NCBI GenBank assembly: GCA_007376135.1 | Contig: VMFR01000001.1 | Location: 206,554 to 270,553 of the forward strand | DNA length: 64,000 nucleotides | Reading direction: 5' to 3' | Origin: Parcubacteria group bacterium Gr01-1014_31 | Lineage (GTDB): Bacteria > Patescibacteriota > Patescibacteriia > Buchananbacterales > GWA2-38-13 | In this document: piece after piece, positions 1,893 to 44,227 of the stretch | Layout: every line of letters begins with the position of its first letter | How positions within the stretch are numbered: position 1 is the stretch's first letter | Translations under genes and position numbers: made by a program | The notes under the pieces: generated by a model | The model's input: only the letters and a program-made list of their open reading frames with translations | Database searches by the model: none | What the model was told of the DNA's origin: nothing

Positions 1893-2002
1893 CCCCGCCT
1901 GACCCCGTAGTACAACGGACCCCGCATACCCGCGGCGCAACCATTATCGTAGCTATTTACTATGCAGGCGAAAAACTGTTTTGACCGTTTGTCCTACCGG
2001 GT

Positions 2003-3613: not shown

Positions 3614-3642
3614 GGCAGCAAGGACGCCCGTCCATCGAACGC

Positions 3643-4725
3643 ATGAATCCCGCGGTCAAGGATTTTCTGGAACGCAATGAACGGCGCATCGGCCTTGGCC
3701 TGATGGCGATGGGGTTTGGCATTGATAACTTGACCCTGAACCGTATCGACCTGCTGTTCGACAACCTCATCTTCTTTTTTTACCTTTCCATCGCGCTGAC
3801 GGCCATCTTTCTCACCAATGCCCACCAGGGCGGCGTGCTGCAGACCCGCTTCATTGCCAGGAACCACGCGTGGCTTCCTTTGCCGATGCAGTACGCCTTC
3901 GGCGGACTATTCAGCGGTTTTGTCGTCATTTACTCGCGCAGCGGCACCTGGGTAGCCAGCTGGATTTTTCTCAGCATTATGGCCGCCCTCCTGGTCGGCA
4001 ATGAATTCGCCAAAAACAACTACGTCCGCCTGGCCTACCACATCACCATCTTCTACACCGCGCTATTTTCGTTCGCCATCTTCTTTTTGCCAGTGCTCAC
4101 CCGGCGCATGGGCACGGGGATGTTCCTGCTGAGCGGAGCAACCAGCCTCGCGACCATTGCCGTCATTCTCTTCGCTTTGGCCAAACTCACGCCCGCGGTC
4201 TTTCTGCGCGCCCGCGTAAAGGCATATACCGGCATCGCTGCGGTCTTTCTGCTGTTCAACGTCCTCTACTTCACCAACGTCATCCCTCCCGTCCCGCTCT
4301 CGCTGAAGCAGATCGGCGTCTACCATGCCGTCGGCAAGAATCCCCTCGGCTATTCCGCTTTGGTGGAGCCCCCTCCCTGGCACCGGTTCTATGAAGACAC
4401 GAGCCGGGTCTTTAACCGCTACGGCAACGAGCCGGTCTTTGTTTTCAGCTCGGTCTTCGCGCCCACCGACCTGAAAGCACCAATTTTTCATCGCTGGTCC
4501 TTCTACAATCAGCAATTGCGCAAATGGACAGTGACCGACCGCTTGTCGTTCTCGATATTGGGCGGGCGAGACGGCGGGTACCGCGGCTACTCCCAGAAGC
4601 GGAATGTTGCACCGGGCCGATGGCGCGTAGATGTGGTAACCAGCCGCGGCCAGCTCATCGGGTATGTCACCTTTTCGGTGGTTACTGCCGACGTTATTCC
4701 CGGAACAAAACGGGTTACCCTTTGA
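3643..4725 (+). CDS. Polytopic membrane protein with soluble C-terminal domain (DUF2914-like)
   Basis: Internal Met (MNPAVKDFLERNERRIGLG...) of ORF 3175..4725. The upstream 155 codons are a high-GC read-through that overlaps gpmI. Multiple TM helices precede a C-terminal ...WRVDVVTSRGQLIGYVTF... domain. Confidence 0.6.
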   Translation: MNPAVKDFLERNERRIGLGLMAMGFGIDNLTLNRIDLLFDNLIFFFYLSIALTAIFLTNAHQGGVLQTRFIARNHAWLPLPMQYAFGGLFSGFVVIYSRSGTWVASWIFLSIMAALLVGNEFAKNNYVRLAYHITIFYTALFSFAIFFLPVLTRRMGTGMFLLSGATSLATIAVILFALAKLTPAVFLRARVKAYTGIAAVFLLFNVLYFTNVIPPVPLSLKQIGVYHAVGKNPLGYSALVEPPPWHRFYEDTSRVFNRYGNEPVFVFSSVFAPTDLKAPIFHRWSFYNQQLRKWTVTDRLSFSILGGRDGGYRGYSQKRNVAPGRWRVDVVTSRGQLIGYVTFSVVTADVIPGTKRVTL

Positions 4726-23622: not shown

Positions 23623-24682
23623 GCACTCTCCTTTTCTCGTGGCGGGCGGCATCCTTCGGGGTCCCGCCCGCTTTTCATTTTCCCTACCTCCAGATATAAA
23701 GACCCTCCATCTCTGGCCATTTGCGCCCCCAACGTCATTCCGGCCTCGGCCTGTCCCGCTGTTGACGGGGAGCCGGAATCCAGAACGAACATAACCCGTC
23801 ATCCCTGGCCCGGACCAGGAATGACATCTTGAATGAGGGTTACCCACATGAAATCGAGTGATGACCGTCCTGGATGCAGGATTCTCACTCATAAAAAAAC
23901 ACCCCGCGTTGCAAGCGCAGGGCATTTGAGTGAAGAACGGGGGCGGACTAACCGTAGTGGTTGTCCGACATCGAAATGTGGGTGGCGGCCAATCCTGGCC
24001 ATGCAGGCGGCGGAGCGGCGGGCTCTGCTTGTTCGTTGGAATGTGCGGCTTCACTGCCACTGGGTTGTGCTTCGCTGCCGAGTACTGCTTGTGGCGCATA
24101 CACACCGTCACCACTGGAAAAGGGCGAGTCAAACGGATATGGCATCCTACCTCCTATCGGGTTGGCGGAAAATTCGGAAACTACAGATTAGCGGAAATCG
24201 ACCCCCTGGTCAAGGGTCGCTGCATACGGGGTAAGAAAACTTTTTACAGTGCTAGGTACTAAGAAGATAGTAGGCGCTTGATGTCATCCCGGCACCCCTC
24301 ACCCAACCCCTCTCCCTGAGGGAGAGGGTGGCCGGAGGCCGGGTGAGGGCGCCCACCCCAAACTCCGTCATCGTGAAAATGACCAAACACCCGCACCCTC
24401 CGGTCCCCCTCCCCGCGCCCAACCGTCATTCCGGCCCCGGCCTGTCCCGCAGTTGGCGGGAAGCCGGGATCTCACCCACGGGTGACCCCCCCCGAAGGGG
24501 GGCAGAACACAATCACCGGGTTTCTGGGTCCCCGCAGAAGTTTACCCTCATGAAAATGGGGGCGAGGACGACCAGACGGCCACAGAAACGACAAATACCA
24601 AAAAGCGGCCCGTGAGGGCCGCTTTTCACTTCTCCTAAACCGATCCTACCGTCCTACTCGACTACACTCCTACTCACCCTGA

Positions 24683-24804: not shown

Positions 24805-26637
24805 TTACGGCAGGGTCGGCAACGGCATATTCAGGTCAGGGCACTCCAGCAGGTTTATCCAACGCTTGGTGGTCTTGTAGACGTACCCGGTCGGGGTCTG
24901 CGCGTTGGGCAAGCCGTACGGCACCCATGGCAGCAGCACCTGCTCCCAGTACTTTTTCTGGAATTCCATCACCGCGTCGCGGGTCGCCTTATCGTAGACG
25001 CCCGTCACGGCGAGGCTCAGCCCGAGGTTCTTGTTCAGGAACTCCTGCAGTTTCTTCACTTCCTCCGGGTCGTTCTTGGCCCCGTACTTGATGAATTTTT
25101 TCAGGTACTCGGTGCTGCATACGAACGGGGTTTCCTCAGTGCTGACACCCAAGACCCGCGGCTGCGGGACGCTGCCCGCCGGAACGCCAGTGGGCACTCC
25201 TGGACCGCGACCCGGCGGGCCGTTGGCGCCGCCCCTTGGCGTCGGAGTCGGCGTGGGTGAGCTGCCACCACCGCCGGGGGTTGGCGTTGGGGTGGGCGTG
25301 GGTTCAGGTGTTGGCGTGGGTGTCGGGGTCGGGCCAGGACCGTCGCCGTTGTCTTCATTATCGTCGTCCGTGCCTGTGCAACCCGGGTCATCCATATCCA
25401 CGAGTTCGTCGTCGTCATTGTCAACGCCGTCGGAACATTCCGTGGTCGGAGTCGGCGTGGGGGTTGGCGTTGGGGTGGGCGTCGGGTCAACCGGGTCGGT
25501 TTCGTCATCGTCCTCGTCGCTGTCGCAGCCCAGGTCGTCCAAATCCACCTCGCCGTCGTCGTCATTGTCCTCCCCATCCGAACACTGCGGTGTCGGCGTC
25601 GGACTGGGCGTCGGGGTCGGCGTGGGCGTCGGGTCAACGGGGTCGGTTTCGTCATCATCGTCCGGAGCACTGCAACCCGGGTCGTCCGAATCTATCAGCT
25701 CGTCGGCGTCGTTATCCTCTCCGTCCGAACACTGCGGTGTCGGCGTAGGCGTCGGGTCAACGAGGTCGGTTTCGTCATCATCGTCCGGGTTGGAACAACC
25801 CGGGTCCTCGGAATCTACCAACTGGTCCCCATCATTATCGGTAGTATCCGAACACTGCGGTGTCGGCGTCGGACTGGGTGTCGGGGTGGGTGTTGGGGTC
25901 GGGTCAACGGGGTCGGTTTCGTCATCATCGTCCGGAGCACTGCATCCCGGGTCCTGCTCATCCACGAGTTGGTCGCCGTCATTGTCCGTAGTGTCCGAGC
26001 ACTGCGGAGTTGGCGTTGGAGTCGGAGTTGGCGTCGGCGTGGGTGTCGGGGTGACCGGGTCCGTTTCGTCGTTGTCCTCGGCGTTGGCGCATCCCGGGTC
26101 CGCCAAATCTACTAACTGGTCGCCGTCGTTATCGGTGGTGTCGGAACACTGCGGAGACGACTCGCTGACCGTCACCTGCACGGATGCCGTTGCCTCGCCG
26201 GAGCTTTCTGCGCCCGGAGGAGTCGCGTGATACAGCTTGGCGATAATGGTATAGGTACCGCCAGCCTCGTAGTCGTGGGTATTGTGCCACGGCCCGGAAA
26301 AATTCTTCACGTTACCGTGAGACAGGTCCACGAATTCCAGCACGGACGTATCGTCCACGTTGCCGTCGCCCCAGTTCACCTGCACGTCGTGCTGCGAGAA
26401 CTGGCCGACGAACGGGACGCCGAACCCGGTGCCGTCCACCTGGACCGACAGACCGTTCACGGTCGTGCCGGTAATAGTTAGGTCATACTCTCCCCCGCCC
26501 GTGGCGGCCATGATGGCCGCGGGCGAAAATGCGGACACCACCATGGAAAAGATGGTCGCGGCGGCCACGGTCCGCAGCCCGTCCAGACGGGAGTGCACAG
26601 AGGCAAACAGCCGTTTCGCGCGGATGTTTTTCTTCAT
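24805..26637 (-). CDS. Secreted protein with six Cys-bracketed Ca-binding-like repeats (QCSDTTDNDGDQLVDxxDPGC) joined by PT linkers, a Gly/Pro-rich spacer and a C-terminal peptidoglycan-binding (PGBD1-like) domain
   Basis: ORF track. The repeats are DxDxDG-type. The C-terminus ...LQEFLNKNLGLSLAVTGVYDKATRDAVMEFQKKY... matches the PG_binding_1 pattern. Confidence 0.7.
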   Translation of the reverse strand: MKKNIRAKRLFASVHSRLDGLRTVAAATIFSMVVSAFSPAAIMAATGGGEYDLTITGTTVNGLSVQVDGTGFGVPFVGQFSQHDVQVNWGDGNVDDTSVLEFVDLSHGNVKNFSGPWHNTHDYEAGGTYTIIAKLYHATPPGAESSGEATASVQVTVSESSPQCSDTTDNDGDQLVDLADPGCANAEDNDETDPVTPTPTPTPTPTPTPTPQCSDTTDNDGDQLVDEQDPGCSAPDDDDETDPVDPTPTPTPTPSPTPTPQCSDTTDNDGDQLVDSEDPGCSNPDDDDETDLVDPTPTPTPQCSDGEDNDADELIDSDDPGCSAPDDDDETDPVDPTPTPTPTPSPTPTPQCSDGEDNDDDGEVDLDDLGCDSDEDDDETDPVDPTPTPTPTPTPTPTTECSDGVDNDDDELVDMDDPGCTGTDDDNEDNGDGPGPTPTPTPTPEPTPTPTPTPGGGGSSPTPTPTPRGGANGPPGRGPGVPTGVPAGSVPQPRVLGVSTEETPFVCSTEYLKKFIKYGAKNDPEEVKKLQEFLNKNLGLSLAVTGVYDKATRDAVMEFQKKYWEQVLLPWVPYGLPNAQTPTGYVYKTTKRWINLLECPDLNMPLPTLP

Positions 26638-26763: not shown

Positions 26764-27996
26764 CTACTCGCAAAGCTGCCCGGCAATGGTGTTGTAGATG
26801 GCGGCAAGGTCCCCGCTGGACGGGCTGAAGTAGTACTGCCCGCCGGTCATCGTTGCGATCTGCTGCAACATCGTGCTGTTGACGTTGGAGCCAAGGCCGA
26901 TAGTGAAAATGGTGGTGCTGGCGTTGGCCGCGTCCTGCGCGCGGTTGATGGCGTAGGTAACATCTGCGGCGTACTCACCGTACCCGGGGCCGAACGGCTT
27001 GTTGGCCTTGCCGTCGGTCAAAAGGATTTCCACGTGAGCTGCTGCTGGGCGCATCCGCACGGATGTAAGCTCGGTGTTCGCGGTCTTAATGGCGTCGCCA
27101 ATGTTTGTTGCGCCAACCGCCACCAGCGCGTCGATCTTGGTCTTTACCAATGGGTAGTTGTTGGTCAACGTTTGGTCCAGGGTCACGCTGGTTGCGAACG
27201 ATACCAAGGACGCCTGGTCGTTCGGAGTGAGTAGGTCCACAAAGCCCTTGGCTGCCGCCTTGGCGTCAACGAACCGCTGGCCGCTGTCAAACAGCATGGA
27301 GCCGGAGCGGTCAATGATGAGGACGACGTCCACCGGCCCGGTGCACTGCTGGGTTGTGCAGCTCGCGCTGCAGGAAGCTCCCGGCTGGCCGTTCTGCGGC
27401 CCCAGGTCGCACTCCTCGCCCGGTTCCATAATGCCGTTGCCGCAGGAGGGGTCGATGTTGACCGACAGGTCACAGCCGAATTCGCCGTTGGTGGTAACGA
27501 TGCCGCCTTTGTGGTCCTGGGCGACGCCGCCGCTGGTCGGGTCGGCGATGGCCGGCGCGTCCAAAAGCACGGTCCAGACGTCGGTCTCGTCCGTGCTTTC
27601 CGTTAAGGTCGCGTTGGCCGGCACGTCGCCTTCGCCCGTTTCGCCCGTCAGCGAGATGTACGGACACAGGTCGCGGTAGTAGCCGGGCAGCTCAGGGTCG
27701 CCGCCGTCCGGGTACTCCGGGTGCTCCGGCGGCAAGGGCTTGCGCTTCTCCTCTATCCAGTAATCCTGCGACTGGCCCAGGAATTCCGGCGCCAGGGTAA
27801 TAGTGAAGGTTTCGTCCAGCTGCTCGCCCGGGAAGACCATGCCGAAGTCCAAATGGTTGATGGATTCCAAGATGGGCAGCAAGGTGGCCGACACGCCGAT
27901 GAGCGCAGACTGGAATATCGCGAACACCAGCCCGCTCACCACGAGTGTGGCGGTTCCCTTGGCCCAGCGGCGGATGGTCATTTTGGAGGTGAACAT
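26764..27996 (-). CDS. Secreted vWA-domain protein with a Myxococcus-type Cys-rich repeat; member of the SipW-cognate-like N-terminal family
   Basis: VWA MIDAS region (VVLIIDRSGSM, ... LTDG). CGNGIMEPGEECDLGPQNGQPGASCSASC repeat. N-terminal AIFQSALIGVSATL...FGMVFPGEQLDETF parallels the paralogs at 33291 and 35135. Confidence 0.8.
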   Translation of the reverse strand: MFTSKMTIRRWAKGTATLVVSGLVFAIFQSALIGVSATLLPILESINHLDFGMVFPGEQLDETFTITLAPEFLGQSQDYWIEEKRKPLPPEHPEYPDGGDPELPGYYRDLCPYISLTGETGEGDVPANATLTESTDETDVWTVLLDAPAIADPTSGGVAQDHKGGIVTTNGEFGCDLSVNIDPSCGNGIMEPGEECDLGPQNGQPGASCSASCTTQQCTGPVDVVLIIDRSGSMLFDSGQRFVDAKAAAKGFVDLLTPNDQASLVSFATSVTLDQTLTNNYPLVKTKIDALVAVGATNIGDAIKTANTELTSVRMRPAAAHVEILLTDGKANKPFGPGYGEYAADVTYAINRAQDAANASTTIFTIGLGSNVNSTMLQQIATMTGGQYYFSPSSGDLAAIYNTIAGQLCE

Positions 27997-28005
27997 GGCG
28001 ATAGT

Positions 28006-31000
28006 CTAGCTGCCATCAACAGGCGTCGGGGTCGGCGTTGGCGACACGGTCGGCGATTCCTCGGTCACGACCGGTTCATCGGACGGCTCCGGCGGCAAAA
28101 CAGCATCGGTTTCCGGTGAAGTTGTGGCAGTATCGTCCGTCGGCGTAGGCGTCGGGGTCGGACTGGGCTCGGGCGTTGGCGATGGGGTGGGTTCCGGCGT
28201 TGGTTCCGGGGTCGGTGACGGCGATGGCGTGGGGGTCGGTTCCACGACCGGCTCCTCTACTTTGCTGACGGGAGCGACCAATTCCTCGGGGCTGGGTTCC
28301 GGCGTCGGGGTCGGCGACGGAGACGCCAGAAGCTCTTCATTCACGGGCTCGAACGCGATCGGGCTGGAGTAGTCATCCGACGGGAAGAGCGCGTCCCACT
28401 CCGCATCGGTCAGCAATGCCGCGTCCTCCACTTCCGGTTCATCCGGCAGCTCGCTGACCACGCCGACCTCCTCGGCCGGTTCGCCGTCGCAGGTTTCGCC
28501 GGTGTTGTCGTCGCCGGGCGTCGGGCACGGGTCCACCCAGTCGCCCGTGCCGTCCGGCACGCGAGCGTAGGAATTGCCCTCGCCTTTCTCACTGGTCCAA
28601 ATGAATTCGTCCAGCAGCGCGCCGTTGCCGCCGATCTCGCGGTTGTACAGCCGCACGCGGTCCCCGCTGTTGTTCAGATTGAAGTCCGAATCGCCGTTAC
28701 GGTAGACCACCATCTGCCCGCCCGCCGCAATGGTCGTGGTGCCGGTGTCCGTGTTGAAGGCGCCAATATCCAGCTCATTGCCGTTGCTGCTGTCGTACAG
28801 CATCCACCCGGCCAGGGAAATAGGCTTGCCGGAACGGTTATAGAGCTCCACCCATTCGCCATTGGGTTTGCCGGCGTCATCGGCGCCAGCGGGGTTGGGC
28901 AGCACTTCGTTCAGCACTACCTCCTGCTGCCCGGTCGGCGAGCAGCCGTCCCATGGGATGAGGTTGCCGTCGTCGCACTGTTCATCCTGTTCCAGCACGC
29001 CGTTGCCGTAGCCCGGCAGGATGCACTGGCCGGCGTTCGGATTCTCGTCCTCGTAGAAATTGTAGATACGGGCGGCGACGTACGCGGCGCGCGCCAGGTC
29101 ATCGCGGGTGGCGCTGCCGTTGGCGATGTACTGCTCCACAGCGGCGATCGCCTGCTGCACCGTCGACGTCGGGCTTAAGCCAAGAACGTCGAAGGCGGCA
29201 TTCCCGTCGTCGGAACCGCCCAAGAGCGCGTCCAGACGCAGACGGCCGGCCGAGACGTTGGCCTCATCGGCCAGGACGTGCGCCTTGGCGCGGCAGCGCT
29301 GGCCGGAAACCGTGCCGCCGCTCGGGCAGTTGCTGGTGTTCACATTGGCGCAGACTTGCGGCCCGGTGATGCCGACAAAGACATCCGAGAAACCGTCCGA
29401 CAACACGCTGACCTCGTCGGCCCAGATGCTGGACGTCGGGCAGCCGTCGTTGTTGCGGTAGTAGCCGATGGACAGGGCCGAGCACTCATTGGTCAGCGGC
29501 TCACAGGTCGTCGAGCAGTTGCTGCCCGGCTGGCCGTTCTGGGTCCCTTCGTCGCACTGTTCGGTCTGACCGAAGGAATTGGGCGTCTGTACCGTGCCGT
29601 CGCCGCACCAGTTGGTCGGCGTACAGGTGTTGTCACAGTCGTCGAAATTATTGGTGTTGCCGTCGTCGCACTGCTCCGGGGCTTCCACGGTGCCATTGCC
29701 GCACTCCGGCGCGACCGTGCAGTCGTTCCGGCAGGCGTCCTCGTCATTCGTATTGCCATCGTCGCACTGCTCCGTTTCCTGGTTGACGATGCCGTCGCCG
29801 CAGCGGACCGGGATGGGGCACAGCACCACTTCATCAACGGCGTAGCTGTCGCCGCCGCGCAACTTGAGCTGGCGGATGCCCGTCGTCTGATCGCCGGTTA
29901 TCTTTTGCACCGAGTTACCGCCCTTGGTCGGCACGGGGATGGAGAACACCTGCGCGGTGCCACTCGCGTCTGCGTACCCGACCACCTCGCCGGTGCTGTT
30001 GTCCAGGTCAATATACTTGACCGAGGAGAACGCCATCGGTTGAGCAAAGGTGAAACGGAGGGAACCGCCGGCCGGTTCGTCGTTCGGGTCATCCACGTCG
30101 CCGTCGGCGGGGGCCGTGTCCACCACGTTGTCGGGGATGATGAGGAGGTTGTGCAGCGCCGTCGCGTTGGACGGTTCCTTGCCGTCGCCGCTCTCGCTGT
30201 TGCCCGGGCCGCCGAACTGGAGGTTGGGGGTGCCCAGGTCCACGTCCACGATGCCGTCGCCGTTGACGCCGCCCGTCGGGGTGTCGGAATCAAAGGTGAT
30301 CCCCACCTGCGGATGCCCGGCGTTGTAGTTGTGCGCGGTGACGGCGATACCCCACGGCAGGTATTCGCCGTCAATGAATTGGCCGCGGCGTATCACGCCG
30401 CCGTTCGCGTCGGTGTCAAAATCCAAAGTGATGGCGTTTTCGCACACGCCGTCCTGGTAGTTGCCGAAGTCCAAGTTGGAGGCAAACTCGCCCTGCGCCA
30501 GGGTCACGTTGATGTTTACTGGCGTGCTGTGGGTCCAGCCGTCGCGGTCCTCTTCCATCACCGTGTAGCTGCCCGCGTTCAAACCGGAGAATTCATAGTA
30601 CCCGGCCGTGTCCGTCACGGCCCCGCCCACGGCATCGCCCGAAAGCGTTATCTGCCAGCCGGGAATCGCGGGTTCGCCCGCGTCCCAAACACCGTCCTTG
30701 TCCAAGTCGTTGAACTTGTGGCCGGACAGGCCGCCGCGGCGCTCTTCCTGCTTGTTGCCGAAGTCCACGACCGTTTCGCATCTGCCGAGGTACACGGCCA
30801 CGCTGTCGTCTGTGGTGGATATCCAGCCGTTCTGCGGCGCCTCGGTCACGATGTAGTCGCCGAAGTCCAGGTTCCCGAACTGGTAGTTGCCGTTCGAGTC
30901 CGTCACCTGGTTGCCGAGGTCGCGCGCCGCCAGCCAGTTCTGGAAATCGCCCAGGTCGCCGGACGGAAGCGCGAGGGAGGAGTCATTGTTGAAATCACAC

Positions 31001-31380
31001 TGCGTGCCGGCGGGACACGTTGCCCCGTCCACGATAACGTCTTCCAGCACGCCGTAGTCGTTGGAATCGTTAAATCCGTTGCCGTTGTAATCAAATTCAG
31101 CGGCATAGGGCCCGCGCTTCAGCTCAATGACCCAGTTCTCCAGGCCCGGCTCGCCCGCGTCGCGGATACCGTCGCCGTCCAGGTCGTTGAACTTGGTCCC
31201 GTGGAGCACGACCTCCTCGCACCGCGGCGTGATGCGGGCCGTGACGTTCACGACCGAAGCCTCAAAGGCCGCAATGACCGGCAGCTGGGTGAGCACCACC
31301 GCAAACGCGACCAGCGAAGCACCCACACGCTTGGTAGCGGTGAGCACGCGCTTCGTCAGTTTTTTAGTTCGTGACCTCAT
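28006..31380 (-). CDS. Giant secreted adhesin-like protein (1124 aa): SipW-cognate-like N-terminus, Cna-B/SdrD-B-like domains, four Myxococcus Cys-rich repeats, a lamin-tail domain (LTD) and a PT-rich C-terminal tail
   Basis: N-terminus ...[14 protein letters not shown]. Cna-B-like segments ([29 protein letters not shown]). [23 protein letters not shown] repeats x4. LTD segment [28 protein letters not shown]. Confidence 0.8.
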
Positions 31381-31387
31381 GGTGAGA

Positions 31388-31830
31388 ACGTATCTAGTAT
31401 CTGGTATCTCGTATTTAGGTAAAGGATTTGCACTTTTTGATCAGACCATTCAGTAACTTATGAACTTCAACGGTCAGTTTTGCGATGGTCTGGAATTTAT
31501 CGTTCGTAATATATTTAACGTCGCGCGCAACGAGTAATTGGTTCTGTAATTCCGTTACTGATCCCTCCGCGAATGAATAAAAGTGTAATTTCTCTTTCCA
31601 GGATTGGCGGCTAAAGCCTTCGGCGATATTGGAAGTGATGGATACTGCGCTCCGGCGCATCTGACTGACCAGCCCGAATGTTTCGTCTTTTGGAAACCCT
31701 TTTGTCGTCTGATAGATCTGGAGGACCAACTGATGCCCCTGCTGCCACGTTGTTAAATTCGTGAAGTTTTTAATTTTTTCCATTTTTATATTCGCTAGAT
31801 ACTAGATACTACATACTAGATACTCCGCCT
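31388..31830. mobile_element. Low-GC cassette carrying a four-helix-bundle gene, flanked by inverted arrays of heptamer repeats (GTATCTN x3.5 on the left, TAGATAC x4 on the right)
   Basis: Left gtatctagtatctggtatctcgtat (~31390..31416) and right tagatactagatactacatactagatact (~31795..31826) are reverse complements. Interior GC is about 43% against ~65% in the flanks. Confidence 0.55.
31415..31783 (-). CDS. Four-helix-bundle protein (TIGR02436 family, the type found in 23S rRNA intervening sequences and mobile DNA)
   Basis: 122 aa, [59 protein letters not shown]-rich codon usage. Confidence 0.75.
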
Positions 31831-31831
31831 T

Positions 31832-32395
31832 TCACTTCTGCACCTTCTTACTCACCATTATGGAAATGAACCCCAGCTTCGGTATCCGCACCGGTTTGCC
31901 CGACGACCAGTTCAGCGTGCGGCCGATGACGGTAGTGACGGCGACTGGCTTATCATCCACGTTGTTGGCGTCGCCGCGGGTGGTGATCTCACCTTTGGCG
32001 GTGTCAATTTCCTTGATGCGGTGGATGGTGAACCCGCGCTCGTTGGTGTAGACCACGATGTCCCCGACCTTCAGCTCTTCGGCGGAGACGGCCTGCACCA
32101 GGATGAGGTCCCCGACCTTCAGTTCGGGCCACATGGACCCGGACGTGATTGCCGCCATCGGGTACTCGGTCTTCAGCCACCTGGACAGCCCAATGGGCAG
32201 CCCCCACACCAGCAGGGCGACGAACCCGACGTAGACGACCACGTTCAGGACCAGTTTCAGGATGCGCCGCGACATCGGCTTTTTCTTTTTCTCCGACATC
32301 CTGGGCGTCACCGTGGAACGCTCGATACCGGCCGCTGCCGCATCGGTGCCCTCCATCTGCGGCGTCGCGGATTCGTTGTTTTGTTCTTCTGACAT
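31832..32395 (-). CDS. Signal peptidase I, SipW/archaeal type (SPase I, S26B-like)
   Basis: 187 aa. Its N-terminal acidic/basic segment is followed by one TM helix. Catalytic SGSMWP motif, a GDANNV-type motif (TRGDANNVDD), and a C-terminal second hydrophobic region. Confidence 0.8.
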   Translation of the reverse strand: MSEEQNNESATPQMEGTDAAAAGIERSTVTPRMSEKKKKPMSRRILKLVLNVVVYVGFVALLVWGLPIGLSRWLKTEYPMAAITSGSMWPELKVGDLILVQAVSAEELKVGDIVVYTNERGFTIHRIKEIDTAKGEITTRGDANNVDDKPVAVTTVIGRTLNWSSGKPVRIPKLGFISIMVSKKVQK

Positions 32396-32515
32396 TGTAA
32401 GGTGCAGTCCGGTGAATTAGGAATCAGGAATAAGGAATTATGCGCCGCAGCATCCCTTATTACTAACTCCTAATTCATGCCGTTCCCTAATTCCTAATTC
32501 TTAATTCCCTATTCG

Positions 32516-33028
32516 CTAAAACAACTTGGGCCACTTGAATATCATCACCCGTCCGCTGTACTTGCGGTATTGCGCCGACGACGGGATGCGGACATTGAAC
32601 TCCAGCTTCACCTCTTCGCCCGGCTGCAGCGTGAATTTCGCCGGCCGGTCCACTTTCATCAGCTCGGCCAGCTCGCCGGATTTCACCACCCAGATGGTCT
32701 TTGCCATTTTGCCGGGGTTTTTCAGGTTGATGAAGCGGGAAGCTCCGGTGTCGCGCGACAGGTCGCCAAAGTCCAGGCGCTCGGCCGTCGGGTTGACGCC
32801 GACTCGGTCGGTGCCCTCCACCACCTGCACGATGGCCTGGTAGCGTTCGGCTGCCATCACCTGCACGCCGATAAACCACACGACCGCAATGGCGCCGATC
32901 AACAGGAACGCCTGCTTCTTGGTCCACTGCTTGCGCGGCTTTTTCGGCGCAGCAACCGGAGCCGGCGCCGGAGCAGCCTGCGTCGTATTCGGTACTTGAG
33001 GTTCTGCGCTTGGCATCTGGGGTTCCAT
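32516..33028 (-). CDS. Membrane-anchored hypothetical protein (170 aa) between the signal peptidase and its putative substrates; possible accessory (TapA-like role) protein
   Basis: A Pro/Ala-rich N-terminus and TM helix (FLLIGAIAVVWFIGV) precede a ~110-aa beta-rich ectodomain. Confidence 0.45.
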   Translation of the reverse strand: MEPQMPSAEPQVPNTTQAAPAPAPVAAPKKPRKQWTKKQAFLLIGAIAVVWFIGVQVMAAERYQAIVQVVEGTDRVGVNPTAERLDFGDLSRDTGASRFINLKNPGKMAKTIWVVKSGELAELMKVDRPAKFTLQPGEEVKLEFNVRIPSSAQYRKYSGRVMIFKWPKLF

Positions 33029-33290
33029 AGATCGGTGAATTAGGAATTTCGAATTATGAATTGGGGGTGCGGTTTTTGGAATTTTTGTCTCAGGCGCCTA
33101 ATTCCTGATTCATAATTCCTTATTCCCCGTATTAACTCCCCATCCCCCTCCGCCCCTTTGGTTGGTGAAGTATGAAGTTCGAATTATGAATAAGGGTATC
33201 GGTTGCCCAATTCCTGATTCATAATTCCTTATTCTTCACGAAACCGCAGGGACGAAGGGCGGATTGGCAGTCAATCGAAGCAGAAATGCC

Positions 33291-34628
33291 TTACGGAACG
33301 GGCTCTGGGGTCGGCTCCGGCGTCGGCGACGGCAGCGGGTCAACCCCATTTTGGGTGAGGTTGTCGATGGCCGTCACTTCAAACCACAGGTCGCAGCCAA
33401 ACACCTCGTGCTCCAGCTCCGGAGGGAGCATGTAGTCATTCGGGTCGGCCGCTGGATTGTGGCTACGGACGAAGTCCGCCCAGTCCTGGGCGCAGGCGCC
33501 CTTGAAACAGGGCACCGGCAGGTCGATGATCCACGTGTCGCCCACGTCCGTACCCGTCTTTTTGATCTTGCCGCGGGCAACGGATGTTGCCAGCTCAGGG
33601 TCATGGAAGGCGGGCACCCCGTAGTCATTGGCCACCGGATGGTTGTCCGGCGTCTTTGACAGGTAGGGGCAGAGGGATGGATAGCACTTTTCCAAGTACG
33701 TTGTCCACACCGTATCGGACGAGTCGTACGGGGTCGTCGGAAGGTTGAGGTGGCAGTAATCGCGTGCGACCGTCACCCCAACCTCCTGCAAGAATCCGTC
33801 CCGCGGCTTGGGTTTCTGCTTGATCACGTAGTGCACCGTGGAAACGCGGGTCTGGTCGGTTTCCGAAAAGGATTCGCTGAAGGTGACAAAGGTGCCACGC
33901 TCCAGATACTCCTGCGGGAACACGGTGCCATGGTTATCCGGGTCCTGGACGTAGTCTGCCGGATCCGCGGTCGGGTTGATTCCGTGGACGTAGTCCTCCC
34001 AGTCCTGGGCGCAGAAACCGTCAAAGCACGGAACCTTCAGGTCGATCTTCCACTGGTCGCGAACGTCATCGTTTGACTTGGCCAGATAACCAATGGCCTC
34101 GAGCCAAGAAATGGACGACGTCGAAACCGTGAACGGCTGGTGGAATGCGGCGACCTCAACCTCGTTAATTTCGACACCATCTGCACCCTTGTGCTTGGAC
34201 AGGTAGGGGCAGAGTGACGGTAGTACGCCCCAGTCCGCGCCCTCGGGCATGTTTTCCGGCCGAGGACCACAATCAATACGGTAACCGCCCTGACCATCTA
34301 AAACGACATGGCCAGTGGCCGTCGGGAAGTCCAACATCACGGTTCCGCCGTCGGTGGTAACTGCGCACTTGGGCTTCTGGCGAATCATGTACTGGACATC
34401 ATCCGCGTCCTTTTCGTCCAAGAACGAGCCAGAAAGCTGAACATCAAAAACCTTGTCCAGCTGCTCCTGCGGGAATACGGTGCCGTAGCGGATTTCCTTG
34501 ATCGGTACTTCCAAGGCGTTCTCGATGCGCGCCGTCACGTTGATGACGTGTGCCTCAAAGGCGGCGAACATTGGGACCGATGCGACGGCCAATGCCAGCG
34601 CCGAGAAGCCGAACAAAACTTTCTTCAT
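33291..34628 (-). CDS. Secreted protein, SipW-cognate-like N-terminus, internally duplicated Cys-motif domain (LCPYLSK ... VPCFxGxCAQDW)
   Basis: MKKVLFGFSALALAVASVPMFAAFEAHVINVTARIENALEV... has two repeats of the LCPYLSK/VPCF(D/K)G(F/A)CAQDW(E/A)D(Y/F)V module, then a Pro-Thr tail. Confidence 0.75.
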   Translation of the reverse strand: MKKVLFGFSALALAVASVPMFAAFEAHVINVTARIENALEVPIKEIRYGTVFPQEQLDKVFDVQLSGSFLDEKDADDVQYMIRQKPKCAVTTDGGTVMLDFPTATGHVVLDGQGGYRIDCGPRPENMPEGADWGVLPSLCPYLSKHKGADGVEINEVEVAAFHQPFTVSTSSISWLEAIGYLAKSNDDVRDQWKIDLKVPCFDGFCAQDWEDYVHGINPTADPADYVQDPDNHGTVFPQEYLERGTFVTFSESFSETDQTRVSTVHYVIKQKPKPRDGFLQEVGVTVARDYCHLNLPTTPYDSSDTVWTTYLEKCYPSLCPYLSKTPDNHPVANDYGVPAFHDPELATSVARGKIKKTGTDVGDTWIIDLPVPCFKGACAQDWADFVRSHNPAADPNDYMLPPELEHEVFGCDLWFEVTAIDNLTQNGVDPLPSPTPEPTPEPVP

Positions 34629-35134
34629 AATGGTTTGCTCCTTTTTAGGGTATTAGGTGCGTACTTGTTACTTTTTAAGTAACTCACCCCATACAGGAAT
34701 CACTCCTGTCCTCCGGGGGAATTGCGCCCGCAATCCCACGTTCCGGGATCGGGCAAGGTACTTAATGAGCTTGAGGCCACCCACGCCTGTTCCGTGGAGG
34801 AACGGAAGAGGTGTGGGTTCGACTTTTGGCCGCAAGTGATTGTCAACCCTTCGATAGGATCTGCTCAGGGTTGCCCTGAGCGCCGCCGAACGGGCAATTG
34901 GGCGGAACGTCCCGCCAACGGCGGGAATGTTGTCCTCCCATCCCCCAGCCTCTTCCCGATAAGGGGCTGGGTCAATGGACGGACAACCGACTCCTCGTCA
35001 TCCCGGCACCCTCACCCTATCCCTCTCCCCGAGGGAGAGGGTGGCCGGAGGCCGGGTGAGGGCCGGAATGACGGTTTAGTTACGGTTGGTCAATGGTACA
35101 GACTACCCGCCTACATCACTACCTAACTTCACGT

Positions 35135-36451
35135 CTACTCCGGGCAGGACGCCAGCTTCTCCAATTCGGCCTGCAGCGTCGCAAAGTCGGCGGCCGAGAA
35201 GTAGTGCGCGTCGTTGGTGGCAATGGTCTTCAGGTAGGTGGCGTCCACGTCGCCGCCGATGCCGACCACGTAGATTTCCACACCTGCCGCCTTGGCCGCG
35301 TCAGCGGCGGTCTTGGCAGCGGCCTTGTCAAGCGTCACGTCGCCGTTCGGGCGGTTCGGGTTGCCATCGGTCATGATGACCATGACGTCCGGCACTGCTG
35401 GACGCTCGTGCGGGTCGGCGCTGTCCAATTCACCGGTCGCAAGTTCAATACCTTCCTTGAGGTTGGTGAACCCGCCGTTGACCAGGGCGTCAATGGCAGC
35501 GTTGATGGTCGAGGTCGCATCGCTCAAGTGCAGGTCCAGTGTGCCCGTGTCCGAGAAACTGCTTTGCCCGACGTGGGTTCCTGCCGTGGACGGGTTGACC
35601 GCGGTTACGAAGGCCTTGGCAGCTGTCTTCAGGTCGCCTAACTCCGTGGAATCAATGCTGCCGGAGCGGTCAATGACCAGCATCATATCCAGGGTCTTGC
35701 AGCCCAAGCCTGGCAGCGAAATCCCGAACACTTCTATCCATAGGTCGCACCCAAAGATCTGGTGCTCGTTGGAACTCGGCTGGATGTATTCGGTCGGGGT
35801 CGCCGAGGGATTTGCGTCATGGACGAAATCGGCCCAATCCTGCGCGCACTGGCCCTCAAAACACGGGGTCTTGAGGTCAATGAGCCAGCGGTCGCCCGTG
35901 TCCTCCTGGGACTTGGCCAGGTGACCGGTTACCTGCGTGTCCAGCGTGGTCTGCAGCGTCCAGCCGTCAATAACGCCATGGAACGCCGGGATTCCCTGCG
36001 AGTCGTTCTCCGTCACGAGGCCATCTGGGGAAACCTCATGCTTGGACAGGTAGGGGCAAAGCAACGGCAGCGGTACATAGCCATCCGGGCAGATGAACAC
36101 GCCCGTATCCTTGTTGTGGCCGATGACCGCAGCGTAACCCTCATATTGAACCGGGTCCGTATTCGCGATCGGCAAACCACACTTGGGCTTCTGCCGGATC
36201 ATGTAGTCAATGTCATCCACGCGCCCCTCGTCGACGAACGACTGGGACAGCGCGATGCTGATGAACTTGTCCAGCTTTTCCTGCGGGAAGACCGTGCCGA
36301 ACTGGATGGGCTCGGTGTTCACCGCCAACGCGTTCTCAATTCTCGCCGTAACGTTAATGACGTGCGCTTCGAATGCCGCGAACATCGGCACCGACGCGAC
36401 CGCCAACGCCAGGGCGGAAAGAGAAAGCAACGCTTTCTTCATAGTTTGCAA
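35135..36451 (-). CDS. Secreted protein, paralog of 33291..34628 (the first 39 residues are nearly identical), carrying a C-terminal vWA domain
   Basis: MQTMKKALLSLSALALAVASVPMFAAFEAHVINVTARIENALAV... One LCPYLSK/TPCFEGQCAQDWADFV module. VWA (LDMMLVIDRSGSIDS ... MVIMTDGNPN). Confidence 0.75.
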   Translation of the reverse strand: MQTMKKALLSLSALALAVASVPMFAAFEAHVINVTARIENALAVNTEPIQFGTVFPQEKLDKFISIALSQSFVDEGRVDDIDYMIRQKPKCGLPIANTDPVQYEGYAAVIGHNKDTGVFICPDGYVPLPLLCPYLSKHEVSPDGLVTENDSQGIPAFHGVIDGWTLQTTLDTQVTGHLAKSQEDTGDRWLIDLKTPCFEGQCAQDWADFVHDANPSATPTEYIQPSSNEHQIFGCDLWIEVFGISLPGLGCKTLDMMLVIDRSGSIDSTELGDLKTAAKAFVTAVNPSTAGTHVGQSSFSDTGTLDLHLSDATSTINAAIDALVNGGFTNLKEGIELATGELDSADPHERPAVPDVMVIMTDGNPNRPNGDVTLDKAAAKTAADAAKAAGVEIYVVGIGGDVDATYLKTIATNDAHYFSAADFATLQAELEKLASCPE

Positions 36452-36967: not shown

Positions 36968-37225
36968 TCAAGCGTAGAGAGGACAATGGGAACAGTGCGC
37001 GGCAAGCCGGCAAAAGACGTTCTTGCCCACGCGGTTCTTGGCGATAAGCCCGGCTTTCTGCAGCTGGTTGAGGTGGAAGGTAACGGTCGGCTGGCGCAGG
37101 CCGGTCAGCTTGACCAGCGACGACACCGACGAGTTCTTGTTCCCCGCTTTCATTAGGTGGTAGAAGATCTGGAATCGAGCTGGCACCGCGATGGATTTTA
37201 GGCACTTCAGGCACTTTGGTTTCAT
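36968..37225 (-). CDS. ArsR/SmtB-family winged-helix transcriptional regulator (85 aa)
   Basis: HTH core FYHLMKAGNKNSSVSSLVKLTGLRQPTVTFHLNQLQKAGLI, with flanking Cys pairs (CLKCLK, CSHC). Confidence 0.65.
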   Translation of the reverse strand: MKPKCLKCLKSIAVPARFQIFYHLMKAGNKNSSVSSLVKLTGLRQPTVTFHLNQLQKAGLIAKNRVGKNVFCRLAAHCSHCPLYA

Positions 37226-39706: not shown

Positions 39707-40639
39707 TCAGCCACCCGTCGGAACCGGCGTCGTACGCCGCCTTGAATTGGGCAAGGATTTTCTCCCGGCTAGACTCTTGTAGACAATTTCATAAGGGTAA
39801 TCCGCTGGATTGGCGTATCCTTCAAAATTATCAGGGTAGTGTGACGGGTAGACCATCGGATACACGTAATCGAAAAATCCGACAGTATCCTGGAACCGCT
39901 GACCGATGCCGAGCCCGTCATCCCGCCACAGCGTCATCCCGAAGAGGTCGACAGACGAGCGCGCCGGCAGGTACCTCATTTGCGAAGCCAGATAACGGAA
40001 GAAGTCCCGCATCGCATCGTTCTTGGTCCTCCCGGTATCCTCAAAGGAAAAATGCATCTCCTTTATCCTACCGTCGGATGGGAATCTGACGTAGTCAAAG
40101 TTGACCTCATCAAATCCTGCCTCAACCGCAGCCCTGGCGATCGCGGCATTGTAGTCCCAGACCTCCCAGCGAGATGCATCCACCCACGCCAACCCCTTGA
40201 AATCGCGCCACACGGCGCCGGACTTCGTTTTAACGGCTAAATCGAGCCGTTTTTCTGCCAAATGGGGGTCCTGAAATACCGCGATCCTGGCAATGGCGTA
40301 GATACCCTGCTTTTTCAGGCCGGAGACTATCCCGCGCAGATCCTTGATGCGCGGCTGGTAGGAACCAACCTCCTTCTCCATGGCATGCCCGGTCTCTATG
40401 AATACCCTGCCGGTGTAGTCCTTCAGGTCGATAACAACCGCGTTCAGCTCGGTCCGGTTGACCAAATCCACCAGCTGCTGAAACCTCGAGCTGTCCCCGG
40501 CGGTATACGCGGTAATGTAAATAGCCTTCACCGGTATTTCCGGAGGTTTTTCCGCTATAGTATATGAAAATAGCGGCGTCCCGCTGATGATCGCCAGCGA
40601 CAGTATTGCTTTCACCGCCATGAGAACGAATTCAAGCAT
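39707..40639 (-). CDS. Putative glycoside-hydrolase-like TIM-barrel protein (DUF4015/GHL family), N-terminal anchor
   Basis: 310 aa; AIYITAYTAGDSSRFQQLVDLVNRTELNAVVIDLKDYTG... matches my recollection of the DUF4015 family pattern. Confidence 0.55.
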   Translation of the reverse strand: MLEFVLMAVKAILSLAIISGTPLFSYTIAEKPPEIPVKAIYITAYTAGDSSRFQQLVDLVNRTELNAVVIDLKDYTGRVFIETGHAMEKEVGSYQPRIKDLRGIVSGLKKQGIYAIARIAVFQDPHLAEKRLDLAVKTKSGAVWRDFKGLAWVDASRWEVWDYNAAIARAAVEAGFDEVNFDYVRFPSDGRIKEMHFSFEDTGRTKNDAMRDFFRYLASQMRYLPARSSVDLFGMTLWRDDGLGIGQRFQDTVGFFDYVYPMVYPSHYPDNFEGYANPADYPYEIVYKSLAGRKSLPNSRRRTTPVPTGG

Positions 40640-41215: not shown

Positions 41216-44200
41216 ATGGCAAATTCCGCCTGCGGTCCGGTCAAACACCAAAAACCCATCGGCTATCAGGCCGCGGCGTTGCTTGCCCATATCAAGTCAT
41301 CAACCGCCCGAAAAGTCGCGGTTTTTTTATTGCCGCTCCTGGCTGCCAACCTGGTGTTGAGCGTGGTGCCCGTCGGACGTGTCGCAGGGGTATTAGCGTA
41401 TGAAGACGAACCGGGACCGTCCTGCGCGGCGCGTTCCGTCGGATTTTTCAAAAACAATGAGGGCTGCCCGGCCGAAAGCATTTGGGCCGATGAGGTTAGT
41501 ACGCTATCGGGCGGCTACGCGGGAGAATTTTCGGGTTTGACCGGCGCGCAATTCTGCATTGACTCCAGCATCAGCGAATGCCCTGCCGGCAACACCGTTG
41601 AAGGACAGCGTTGCCGGGCCCGCGCCCACCTGCTGGCCAATGAAGCCAACGTGGTCTCCGCCCGCCTGCAGACCGATGCCCTGCTTGCCGGCGCCGACAA
41701 CGGCGATCCGGCATTCTCCGCGCTCGGCCTTTCGTCTTCGTCCACGGTCGGCCAAGCACTCGCCATTTTGGAGCAAGCACTTGCCGACGTGAACGCCACC
41801 GCCGCCCAGCTGGAAGATATCGCCACGGTGGCGGCGCGCATCTACACGTTCTACGAAAGCGAAAATACCAGCGCCCCGGCCTGCGTCATGCCCACCCCCA
41901 CGCCGACGCCGACCCCGACGCCCACGCCAACACCGGCCTGCGTGATGGAGCTAGTGAAGACCGACTCCCCGGACCCGGTTGAGCCAGGCCAAAACATTTC
42001 CTACCACCTGCGCCTGGAAAGCACCGGCACGGGGATGTGCACCGGCGGCGGCGTGGAGCTGAAGGAGTTCTACGACAGCGCAACGACGTTCGTGTCCGCC
42101 AACCCCGCTCCGACGTCCGGCAACAACCGCTGGAACTTCGGCGAGGTGCCGCCGGGCGAGGTCAACGAGGTGGACGTTATTGTCCACGTGCCCGCGACCG
42201 CCCAGGATGGCGATATCATCACCAACCAAGCGTGCTTCTGGACGCGCGAGTATAACACCTGGACCTGCGTGACGGAACAAACGACCGTCCGCGTCCCTCC
42301 GCCGCCCACCCCAACGCCTACGCCGACACCGGAACCGACCCCGACGCCGACCCCATCGCGAGCCTACTGTGGCGACGAGGTTGTCCAAACCCCCAACAGC
42401 GACGGCCAGGCCGAGCAGTGCGACGACGGCAACCTCATCAATTTCGACGGCTGCAACGTGCACTGCCAGCTGGAGCAGTTCTCCTGTCCCGCGCCGGTCA
42501 TCATTGATTTTGACCGGGACGGCAGCGGCAGCCCGATAGCGGCCGGCCAACTCCTGGATACTGAGTACGCGACCGTTGGCGTGACCATCACGGCCGCCAA
42601 CGACAACGCCTCCCGCCCGCAGATGGCGATCACTTTTGACGGCCAGAACCCAACCGGCGGCGCCGACAGCCTGGACCACGGCACGCCAAACGTTTTCTAC
42701 GGCGGCACCGGCGTCGGTGCCGGCGGCGTACCATCCAATAATGTGCCACTTTACCTGCACCTCATTATTCCAAAGAACGTGACCGACGCGAACCACGATG
42801 GCTTGGTGGACGACCCGGACGAGGACAGCGCCGGCACTGTGACGTTCACGTTCGCCGACCCGGTGAGGCCGGAGCTCATCACCCTCATCGACATAGACCA
42901 CAACGCCGGAACCCATTCCGTCAAAGGGTACCTCGGCTCCACGCTGGTCAGCACCGTGGCTATCCCCACCTACGGCGACAACAACGTCCAATACCTCGAG
43001 TTGGACAATACCCAGGAAGTCGACCAGCTGCGAGTCCGGCTCAACGACTCCTTCGGCATTGACCACCTGGTGTTCTGCCCGCAGACGCCGCCACCCCCGA
43101 CGCCAACGCCTACTCCCACACCCACCCCGATACCCACGCCTACTCCGACGCCAACGCCCACACCGACACCAACGCCGGAGCCAACTCCCACGCCAACACC
43201 TGAACCTACCCCAACGCCGACACCGACTCCTACTCCCACACCGACCCCGACGCCAGAACCCACACCGACGCCGACCCCGGAACCCACGCCAAGCCCGACA
43301 CCTGCGCCCACGCCGACACCTACCCCGCCCCCTGGTGGCGGTGGAGGCGGGGGCGGCGGAGGGGGTGGCGGTGGCCCCATTCCCAACCCCCGGTTGAGCG
43401 TTACGAAAACCTCTCCGGTCATCACCGCCTGCGCGGGCAGCACGGTTCCCTACACCATCACGGTGCAAAACATCGGTTCCTACAGCGGATTCAACCTTGT
43501 ACTCACCGACACGCTGCCCTCCGGCTTCACGTTCGGCACCTCTACCGCCGGGTCGTTCCAGCGCAGTTTCGGCAACGTCGCGCCGCACGAAGTGAAGAGC
43601 TACTCCTACACCGCGACGGTTCCGCCGGGGACTCCGAATGGCAGCTACACGAATACCGTTGTCGCGAAGATCGACAACGGCGGCCCGGCCAACAACACGG
43701 CCAGCGCCAGTTTTATCGTGAAGGTCGCCAACGCATGCGCCGCCCCCGCCCTGGCCCTGGAAAAAACCGTCGCGCAGGACTTCGTGAACGCCGGCGGTTT
43801 GGCTGACTTCACCCTCATAGTTTCCAACGTCGGTCCCGTAACGCTGACCAACGTGACGCTCGCCGATGTTCTGCCCGACGGCTTCACCGCGTCTGACGGC
43901 ACCACTTCATGGTCGCTGAACGATCTTGCGCCCGGCGCCACGAAAACGGTTCAACTGAAAGTCAGCGTCGGCGCAAATGTTGCTCCCGGCACCTATCCCA
44001 ACGTCGCGAAAGCCAAGGCCGACAACCACGCCGAAGTCGTGGACTCGGTCAGTGTGGAGGTCCGCGCGGGCCAGGTCCTGGGCACGGCTTTTGAAGAGCT
44101 GCCCGACACCGGCTCCGGGTTCACGATGCTGGCGTACTTCATCGTCAACCTCATGGCATTAGCCGCCGGTGTCGCGCTCTACCGCTGGACCAACCGCTAC

Positions 44201-44227
44201 GCCCGCCAGTACCAGCTGTGGGCATAA
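41216..44227 (+). CDS. LPxTG-anchored cell-surface protein (1003 aa): Myxococcus Cys-rich repeat, three PT linkers, a 14-Gly run, DUF11 repeats, and a C-terminal LPDTG + TM + basic-tail sorting signal
   Basis: ...[44 protein letters not shown] at the C-terminus. [37 protein letters not shown]11-like [13 protein letters not shown] and [13 protein letters not shown]. Confidence 0.8.

Follow-up and report, generated by a model that had tools for sequence, protein, structure and literature searches.

A conserved operon of Patescibacteria combining a SipW-type signal peptidase with strand-bearing surface proteins: a candidate donor-strand fibre system

Introduction

Do the secreted proteins encoded around a SipW-type signal peptidase in Parcubacteria group bacterium Gr01-1014_31 assemble into a surface fibre? 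This question is raised by positions 26764 to 36451 of a 64,000-nucleotide stretch of its contig VMFR01000001.1 (the window, in what follows, is that whole 64-kb stretch), where four secreted proteins with a common N-terminus and very different remaining domains are encoded together with the peptidase and a small membrane protein. An earlier note, made from the sequence alone, had proposed a modular fibre or pilus-like system in which a shared, SipW-processed module displays interchangeable adhesive domains. The analysis reported here favours a SipW-dependent donor-strand surface fibre of the TasA/TapA/BsaA type with modular adhesins, specific to the candidate phyla radiation (CPR, or Patescibacteria), to which we give a probability of roughly 0.55. 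It is favoured because the CPR operon mirrors each element of the TasA/TapA/Bsa systems with unrelated sequences, and it is built on gene content, synteny, peptidase type, the conservation and modularity of a post-signal strand, and folds.

Much of bacterial diversity belongs to the CPR, whose members seem to live in attachment to other microbes. So far, work on attachment organelles in this group has dealt with the type IV pilus alone, and only in cultivated Saccharibacteria (PMC11623550). If fibres do form, the SipW/TasA donor-strand principle of Firmicutes and archaea would hold for the CPR as well and concrete candidates for host-adhesion molecules would be at hand, in a system compact enough (a subunit, a 140-aa peptidase and a 160-aa immunoglobulin-like protein) to be tested heterologously without CPR culture.

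Gene content of the locus

The locus comprises seven genes, lettered A to G and transcribed in the order G, F, E, D, C, B, A. Every open reading frame (ORF) listed in the earlier note is present, on the minus strand. The genes and their post-signal strands are as follows (aa, amino acids; Ig, immunoglobulin-like; TM, transmembrane).

36451..35135, minus strand: gene G, family member of 438 aa, with a signal peptide, the invariant strand, a Cys-rich beta-sandwich body of ~225 aa (residues ~43-250) and a C-terminal VWA domain (residues 255-427)
36326..36379, minus strand: post-signal strand of G (residues 25-42, AAFEAHVINVTARIENAL), holding a putative SipW cleavage junction FA↓AF and a putative donor strand
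34628..33291, minus strand: gene F, fused family member of 445 aa, with a signal, the strand and a type-1 body joined in frame to a type-2 body
33028..32516, minus strand: gene E, accessory protein of 170 aa, with a TM helix and an Ig domain
32395..31832, minus strand: gene D, SipW/archaeal-ER-type signal peptidase I of 187 aa, with one TM helix and Ser/His motifs
31783..31415, minus strand: gene C, '23S rRNA intervening sequence' four-helix-bundle protein of 122 aa (PF05635, 1.5e-37; weakly Avd-like too)
31380..28006, minus strand: gene B, strand-only protein of 1124 aa with adhesin domains, the family body being absent
31231-31272, minus strand: strand of B, following a long charged n-region and a hydrophobic segment
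27996..26764, minus strand: gene A, divergent member of 410 aa, with a signal, a variant strand, a reduced body, one Cys repeat and a VWA domain (4.1e-21)
27877-27921, minus strand: variant strand of A (AIFQSALIGVSATLL), without the Asn

As had been claimed, the signal region and the first strand motif are common to all four secreted proteins (A, B, F and G), the copy of A being divergent. The hidden Markov model (HMM) of the family body matches G at 320.7 bits over positions 1-252, and also finds the N-termini of A (25.7 bits, positions 11-88 only) and B (25.1 bits, positions 2-36 only); beyond these secreted proteins it matches no ORF of the window. A second motif, FG(T/M)VFPxE(Q/K)LD, had been ascribed to the four proteins alike. 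It occurs in A, F and G, and B keeps the signal and strand only. The domain calls were reproduced with Pfam and NCBIfam models, which find VWA in A and in G (3.5e-28). In the case of B, the strand is followed by two SdrD_B domains, three Cys-rich acidic repeats, a region with the motif C.ALSIGYY.N.GC, an LTD domain and a Pro/Thr-rich tail. The reduced body of A keeps FGMVFPGEQLD, LCPYISL and FGCDLSVNI.

Two established kinds of surface filament were considered for these proteins and set aside. Sortase-assembled pili of Gram-positive bacteria do not fit, A, B, F and G having no LPXTG motif with a TM tail; indeed, their C-termini, read directly, are ...IAGQLCE in A, ...LASCPE in G, ...PEPTPEPVP in F and ...PTPVDGS in B, and no sortase was seen among the Pfam annotations of the gene lists of the inspected loci. 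Type IV pilins were rejected as well: the four proteins have no N_methyl match, and their N-termini are classical n-h-c signals followed by AAFEAHV.

Conservation of the operon

The survey of related genomes suggested in the earlier note, for co-occurrence of the N-terminal module with SipW, covered 74 loci from GTDB species representatives, located by HMMs built locally from the window and three loci. Nearly all are titled as Patescibacteria and five have other labels. The SipW-type peptidase is present in 57 of the 74 loci and E in 59. In 56 of the 57 peptidase loci E lies directly upstream of the peptidase. From the stop codon of E to the start of the peptidase the median distance is 8 bp, and overlap of both genes is common. 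The 170-aa protein does occupy the position of an accessory factor, as the universally conserved gene directly upstream of the peptidase. Sixteen of the 17 loci without a peptidase stop at a contig edge just past the last member. The exception, L028 (Candidatus Uhrbacteria MGEK01000001.1), has its members at 1729-4578, followed by ~9 kb without a peptidase or E gene; apparently either the system is split there or its members rely on a peptidase encoded elsewhere.

Downstream of the peptidase, a strand-only protein is encoded in 52 of 59 non-redundant loci. These proteins consist of a hydrophobic segment and the strand with no body, and their genes mostly start a few bases past the peptidase stop. 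The conserved unit is one to four members, followed by E, the peptidase and a strand-only protein. This order is kept across Giovannoni-, Azam-, Ryan-, Wildermuth-, Uhr-, Vogel-, Taylor-, Doudna- and Harrisonbacteria and relatives. L002 and about eight other loci also have a divergent last member that resembles A. As for gene C, no gene is called at its position in L001, L002 and L004, and locus L080, from the same genome, has it too; C appears to have been inserted into the operon in a lineage-specific manner and does not belong to the conserved system.

Many strand-only proteins share a second motif, C.ALS(I/V)GYW.NH.GC, found in 16 of the 52 by a strict pattern. It stands right after the strand in short forms of ~340 aa (for example L014 12626-13699 and L011 14866-15879) and mid-chain in B. 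The short proteins tested match no Pfam family, and the motif may mark another uncharacterised domain of the system.

The post-signal strand

In G and F the strand reads AAFEAHVINVTARI and in A, in divergent form, AIFQSALIGVSATL, each time after a hydrophobic N-terminus. Its conservation was computed on an alignment of 86 members, about 50% identical overall. Residues 25-42 (FAAFEAHVINVTAxIENAL) show a mean entropy of 0.23 bits, compared with 1.71 bits for the signal and 1.42 bits for the body; no other 18-residue window of the protein varies so little. Read directly, the sequence displays a hydrophobic alternation from the Ile on (I.V.A.I...L), like that of an edge or inserted beta-strand. 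Moreover, the Asn of VINVT is kept in 208 of the 214 strand-bearing proteins of loci L001-L080, and the body holds invariant Lys (RQKPK, LSK) and Glu residues. Candidate roles for this Asn are a glycosylation sequon or a BsaA-like isopeptide with a body Lys. Such conservation appears to exceed by far what recognition by a signal peptidase alone would need. Furthermore, because the strand is found on proteins without the body, it would be an autonomous, trans-acting module and not simply the first strand of the body domain.

The similarity to SipW-cognate signals that the earlier note looked for was not found. TIGR04088 gives no match at E <= 10 for the four window proteins, nor for the 86 family members, and the positive control run in the same library, TasA, scores 38-41 bits at a cutoff of 19. 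Judged by sequence models, the window proteins would lie outside the described SipW-substrate families.

The signal peptidase

The assignment of D to the archaeal/SipW type stands. D scores 88.1 bits with TIGR02228 (archaeal/ER-type signal peptidase I; cutoff 51.85) and 33.1 bits with the bacterial LepB-type model TIGR02227, below its cutoff of 47, so it did not turn out to be the generic LepB-type enzyme that the earlier note had named as a possible objection. The Bacillus SipW equivalog model NF046067 gives 45.6 bits and its cutoff of 190 is not reached; by these models D would be the same type of enzyme as B. subtilis SipW and not its orthologue. Peptidase homologues of the other loci score 78.7-90.3 bits on TIGR02228.

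The motifs SGSMWP, TIHR and GDAN..D of D (the last reading GDANNVDD in D itself) are conserved in 63 homologues. Within them S85/S87, H125, G141-D142-N144 and D148 are conserved, with S85/S87, H125 and D142/D148 present in at least 90% of the 63. The conserved Ser and His are the predicted catalytic residues, His standing where LepB-type enzymes have Lys. The true start of D may be an internal Met, because the homologues are 140-154 aa long. A second ORF with SxSMxP was not found in the window. An S24-family protein of L002 was considered as a housekeeping LepB and rejected, being LexA-like with a helix-turn-helix domain.

The accessory protein

E consists of a low-complexity N-terminus, one TM helix (residues 37-59) and a single PapD/MSP/ASH-type Ig domain (61-167); no Pfam or NCBIfam model covers the protein. 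The membrane anchoring proposed in the earlier note is supported by this predicted arrangement of one helix followed by a beta-sandwich. In the structure model, computed from a 61-sequence alignment with a mean predicted local distance difference test score (pLDDT) of 89.7, the helix runs straight into an Ig domain of seven or eight strands. A two-domain, PapD-like chaperone was rejected for E, which has a single domain and is TM-tethered. The sequence after the helix (MAA-ERYxAVVNV) resembles the pilin junction. A paralogous relationship between E and the pilin body was likewise rejected, at an hhalign probability of 21%; the resemblance remains a lead.

The body family

A word-seeded search with F returned 1185 relatives, labelled only as hypothetical or 'vWA domain-containing' and stemming from Vogel-, Doudna-, Parcubacteria and other Patescibacteria. 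When 1.84 billion cluster representatives were searched exhaustively with the profile, at least 617 clusters (at 50% identity) were recovered at E <= 1e-3, 289 of them at E <= 1e-30. The body family is essentially restricted to Patescibacteria. No Pfam or NCBIfam model covers it, and no related sequence was retrieved from the PDB with the family profile.

The shared body of ~250 aa is nearly always N-terminal, and in the 150 best-scoring clusters total lengths range from 176 to 1126 aa. Most members, of 240-280 aa, consist of signal, strand and body and nothing else; the remaining ones add VWA, LTD, SpaA-like, beta-helix or LamG domains. The picture of one conserved post-signal module on very different bodies is hence valid here and family-wide, and the modularity first deduced from four proteins appears, from these architectures, to extend to the entire family. 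Five or six Cys are conserved in the Cys-rich body, which occurs in two subtypes, type 1 (RQKPKC...TATGHV) and type 2 (KQKPKP...ARxWCH).

Predicted structures and comparison with TasA

The N-terminal domain of G (residues 1-251) was modelled with AlphaFold2 from the 86-sequence alignment (pLDDT 85.9, predicted template modelling score 0.76). The model displays a signal helix at residues 2-25, residues 26-41 without DSSP strand pairing, and a beta-sandwich with a long C-terminal strand. The unpaired state of residues 26-41 and the occurrence of the strand on body-less proteins would both agree with a strand donated to a neighbour. A Foldseek search of the body against the PDB returned nothing significant. 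The weak top matches are mostly subunits of donor-strand filaments: the TasA fibre 8aur (E 0.038), CfaB, the Hyper2 tube, FimA, CanA and AggA. The body would be, according to this model, a beta-sandwich without a close solved relative.

With hhalign, the family aligns to the single TasA sequence with a probability of 17%, which is too weak. Against a profile of 46 TasA homologues the probability is 52% (E 1.5e-4), for an alignment that covers only the signal, the AAF junction, the strand and the first body strand. The body is not demonstrable as a TasA homologue.

The fused gene F and a near-identical assembly

Over 17 kb, the window and a 280-kb contig from ENA (ERZ27284378 k139_328889; locus L080) share 99.99-100% identity, two stretches excepted. 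In the first, the window lacks 240 bp at ~33930/33931 (L080 9907-10146). As a result, genes for a 255-aa type-1 and a 261-aa type-2 protein are joined in frame to give F. Lost with it are, from the first gene, the C-terminal FGCDLW strand and, from the second, the signal, the strand and the first strand of the body. F shows two HMM domains and an internal copy of the second motif, HGTVFPQEYLE. In the second stretch, the window lacks 82 bp at ~39768 (L080 3987-4068), inside 39707..40639, which frameshifts a DUF4015 glycosyl-hydrolase-like gene whose product has 354 aa in L080 and 310 aa here. Repeats were not found at either deletion junction, and the two differences are either strain variants or assembly errors. 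The remaining genes are intact and identical to L080.

The count of four substrates is accordingly correct for the ORFs of this window and not for the ancestral operon, which, F being a fusion of two genes, would have encoded five strand-bearing proteins. The idea that F is a natural tandem reporting strand complementation is ruled out by the 240-bp deletion, whose junction has no repeats.

Genomic surroundings

Just downstream of A and on the same strand, 24805..26637 encodes a 610-aa protein with six acidic double-disulfide repeats (NF033662), Pro/Thr linkers and a peptidoglycan-binding domain. Acidic, Cys-rich repeats of a related kind (TIGR02232/DUF4215) are present in A, B and a 1003-aa DUF11 protein (41216..44227, plus strand), and many secreted repeat proteins (DUF11, dockerin, CAP, DUF5667) are encoded nearby. 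The sole strong hairpin resembling an intrinsic terminator on the minus strand between 24.5 and 37.5 kb, with a 13-bp stem and 7 G-C pairs, is located at 24599..24628. It lies after the 610-aa gene, so transcription of the fibre genes could reach there. The promoter and terminator scan showed no enrichment over shuffled controls. Immediately upstream of G, on the same strand, 36968..37225 encodes an 85-aa ArsR/HTH_5-type regulator, and the same is seen in L080. Rfam and tRNA scans of the window gave one tRNA-Gln only.

Discussion

Proposed assembly

From the elements described above we infer a cleavage position, strand insertion, polymerisation, polarity, an isopeptide and a role of E. Subunits would be exported by Sec and kept in the membrane via their signal peptide. 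The SipW-type peptidase would then cut at the conserved (F/L)(A/S)A↓FEAHV junction and free AFEAHVINVTAxIENAL as the new N-terminus, as in TasA. The freed strand would enter the Cys-stabilised beta-sandwich of a neighbouring subunit by donor-strand complementation, giving rise to a polymer that may be locked via the near-invariant Asn in a BsaA-like manner, and subunits with C-terminal VWA or other domains would decorate the fibre. The post-peptidase protein, which has the strand and no acceptor body, could act as a donor only; like TapA, it would serve as the cap or initiator at one end, and it would present LTD/SdrD-type adhesive domains. E may serve as an assembly chaperone, as an anchor or as a specificity partner of the peptidase.

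More tentatively, these features might define a new class of pilus in CPR bacteria of the Parcubacteria/Paceibacteria type, composed of Cys-rich Ig-like subunits with a SipW-exposed donor strand and a possible Asn lock, a TM-tethered, single-domain PapD/MSP-like chaperone or anchor, and interchangeable tips for host attachment, which strand-only proteins and fusions to VWA, LTD, beta-helix or LamG domains would provide. Such a pilus would follow the logic of chaperone-usher systems in a monoderm that has no usher.

Alternative explanations

Several observations weigh against a donor-strand fibre. None of the 86 members matches TIGR04089, TIGR04090 or the TasA/camelysin model that the earlier note had pointed to (Peptidase_M73, PF12389, at E <= 10). 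The NVT triplet of the strand is also an N-glycosylation sequon, and the unpaired state of residues 26-41 in the monomer model is how any linker after a signal helix would look. The fusion in F, which lacks a core strand, may reflect relaxed constraint or an assembly artefact. Furthermore, the SipW-type peptidase is only a candidate for a 'dedicated' enzyme beside a putative housekeeping LepB, and the extreme conservation of the strand could instead come from recognition by the peptidase/E pair.

This last point leads to the serious rival, which we nevertheless consider somewhat improbable. According to it, the operon carries out a dedicated secretion and processing of adhesins that do not polymerise. 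The strand would be a sorting tag, read by the peptidase together with E, that marks VWA, LTD and other adhesins for specialised cleavage, release or retention, and the body would be a stalk or binding domain. The presence of the strand on otherwise unrelated proteins, the tight pairing of the E and peptidase genes and the description of TIGR04088-type signals as a signal class are all in agreement with such a tag. MSP and PapD-type Ig domains, whose fold E has, bind peptides by beta-augmentation, and the body has no significant structural match to any known filament subunit. However, signal peptidases normally need the -3/-1 positions only, and ~17 near-invariant residues after the cut, with alternating hydrophobicity, suggest a structural partner. 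One to four small members made of strand and body (240-280 aa) per operon suit shaft subunits and are odd for adhesins; in TasA and BsaA, moreover, the tag is the donor strand.

It is unlikely, in our view, that the signal stays uncleaved as an anchor and that the juxtamembrane strand pairs laterally with E or with other members, forming a two-dimensional coat or lattice that shows VWA and LTD domains instead of a fibre. The signal region is indeed predicted as one long helix up to the strand, the long and highly charged n-regions of B-like proteins are typical of signal-anchors, E is predicted to be TM-tethered, the helix being followed at once by the first strand of its Ig domain, and the N-termini of E and the pilins align weakly (the 21% noted above). 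On the other hand, practically all complete loci include a peptidase gene, which points to a central role of cleavage; the junction (FA↓AFEA) is similar to the site at which TasA is cleaved (WA↓AFND); and these data show no sign of lattice contacts. As for a decaying or assembly-distorted locus without coherent function in this genome, the 240-bp loss, by which two members are fused and a core strand disappears, and the 82-bp loss that frameshifts a neighbouring gene, would be in its favour; with the other genes intact and identical to L080, and operon order and content kept across dozens of lineages, it is very improbable.

Comparison with known systems

The proposed donor-strand fibre can be set beside systems already described. 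In TasA, cleavage by SipW exposes residues 28-38, the first 11 of the mature protein, and these enter the following subunit, whose beta-sandwich they complete (PMC9674648). TapA, which has a complete Ig fold, acts through an N-terminal strand like that of TasA, which it donates (PMC10151520). The B. subtilis tapA-sipW-tasA operon resembles the CPR operon in having a SipW-type peptidase gene among its substrates, an accessory gene directly upstream that is close or overlapping, substrates with an AAF junction followed by a conserved strand, and beta-sandwich subunits; the strand of TapA on an unrelated complete fold recalls B and the other strand-only proteins. The two differ in that HMM-level homology is absent and the fold match is weak. 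Only the CPR operon has a Cys-rich body, several paralogous subunits and adhesin domains fused to subunits; its accessory protein is a TM-tethered PapD/MSP-type Ig domain, and its host is a CPR bacterium.

The C. perfringens cluster sipW-bsaA-bsaB-bsaC includes a VWA protein, and BsaA polymerises by exchange of an N-terminal donor segment whose Asn35 is then locked in an isopeptide with Lys74 of the acceptor (PMC11580942). It shares with the CPR operon the combination of SipW, TasA-like polymerising subunits and a VWA protein, and the near-invariant strand Asn and the body Lys and Glu have their place in this comparison. Unlike it, the CPR proteins have no match to TIGR04090 (the BsaA family), and VWA is a separate protein there and fused to the body here. 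An E-like gene is not described for that cluster, and the CPR isopeptide is a candidate only.

Donor-strand polymers formed through the N-terminus without a chaperone are also represented by the Pyrobaculum bundling pili AbpA/AbpB (PMC9245690), the Pyrodictium cannulae CanA/CanX and the DUF1102 tubes. AbpB has been proposed as an initiator or adhesin, and the ABP operon is without a dedicated peptidase (PMC9245690). These archaeal filaments differ from the CPR system in domain sizes and Cys pattern. Chaperone-usher pili (PapD/FimC) are more distant: E is single-domain and TM-tethered, with no two-domain boomerang, and there is neither an usher nor an outer membrane. The higher-scoring fold neighbours of E are ASH/MSP domains, so its fold match to PapD/FimC is generic.

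In the full-text literature, no paper was found that links SipW-type peptidases or donor-strand fibres to the CPR, apart from one that mentions homologues of PF12389 in Patescibacteria (PMC9245690). The statement in the earlier note that no equivalent had been described was too strong, since tapA-sipW-tasA and especially sipW-bsaA-bsaB-bsaC are close functional analogues (PMC9674648, PMC10151520, PMC11580942). The principle is known, and what is new is the protein family, the accessory protein and the lineage.

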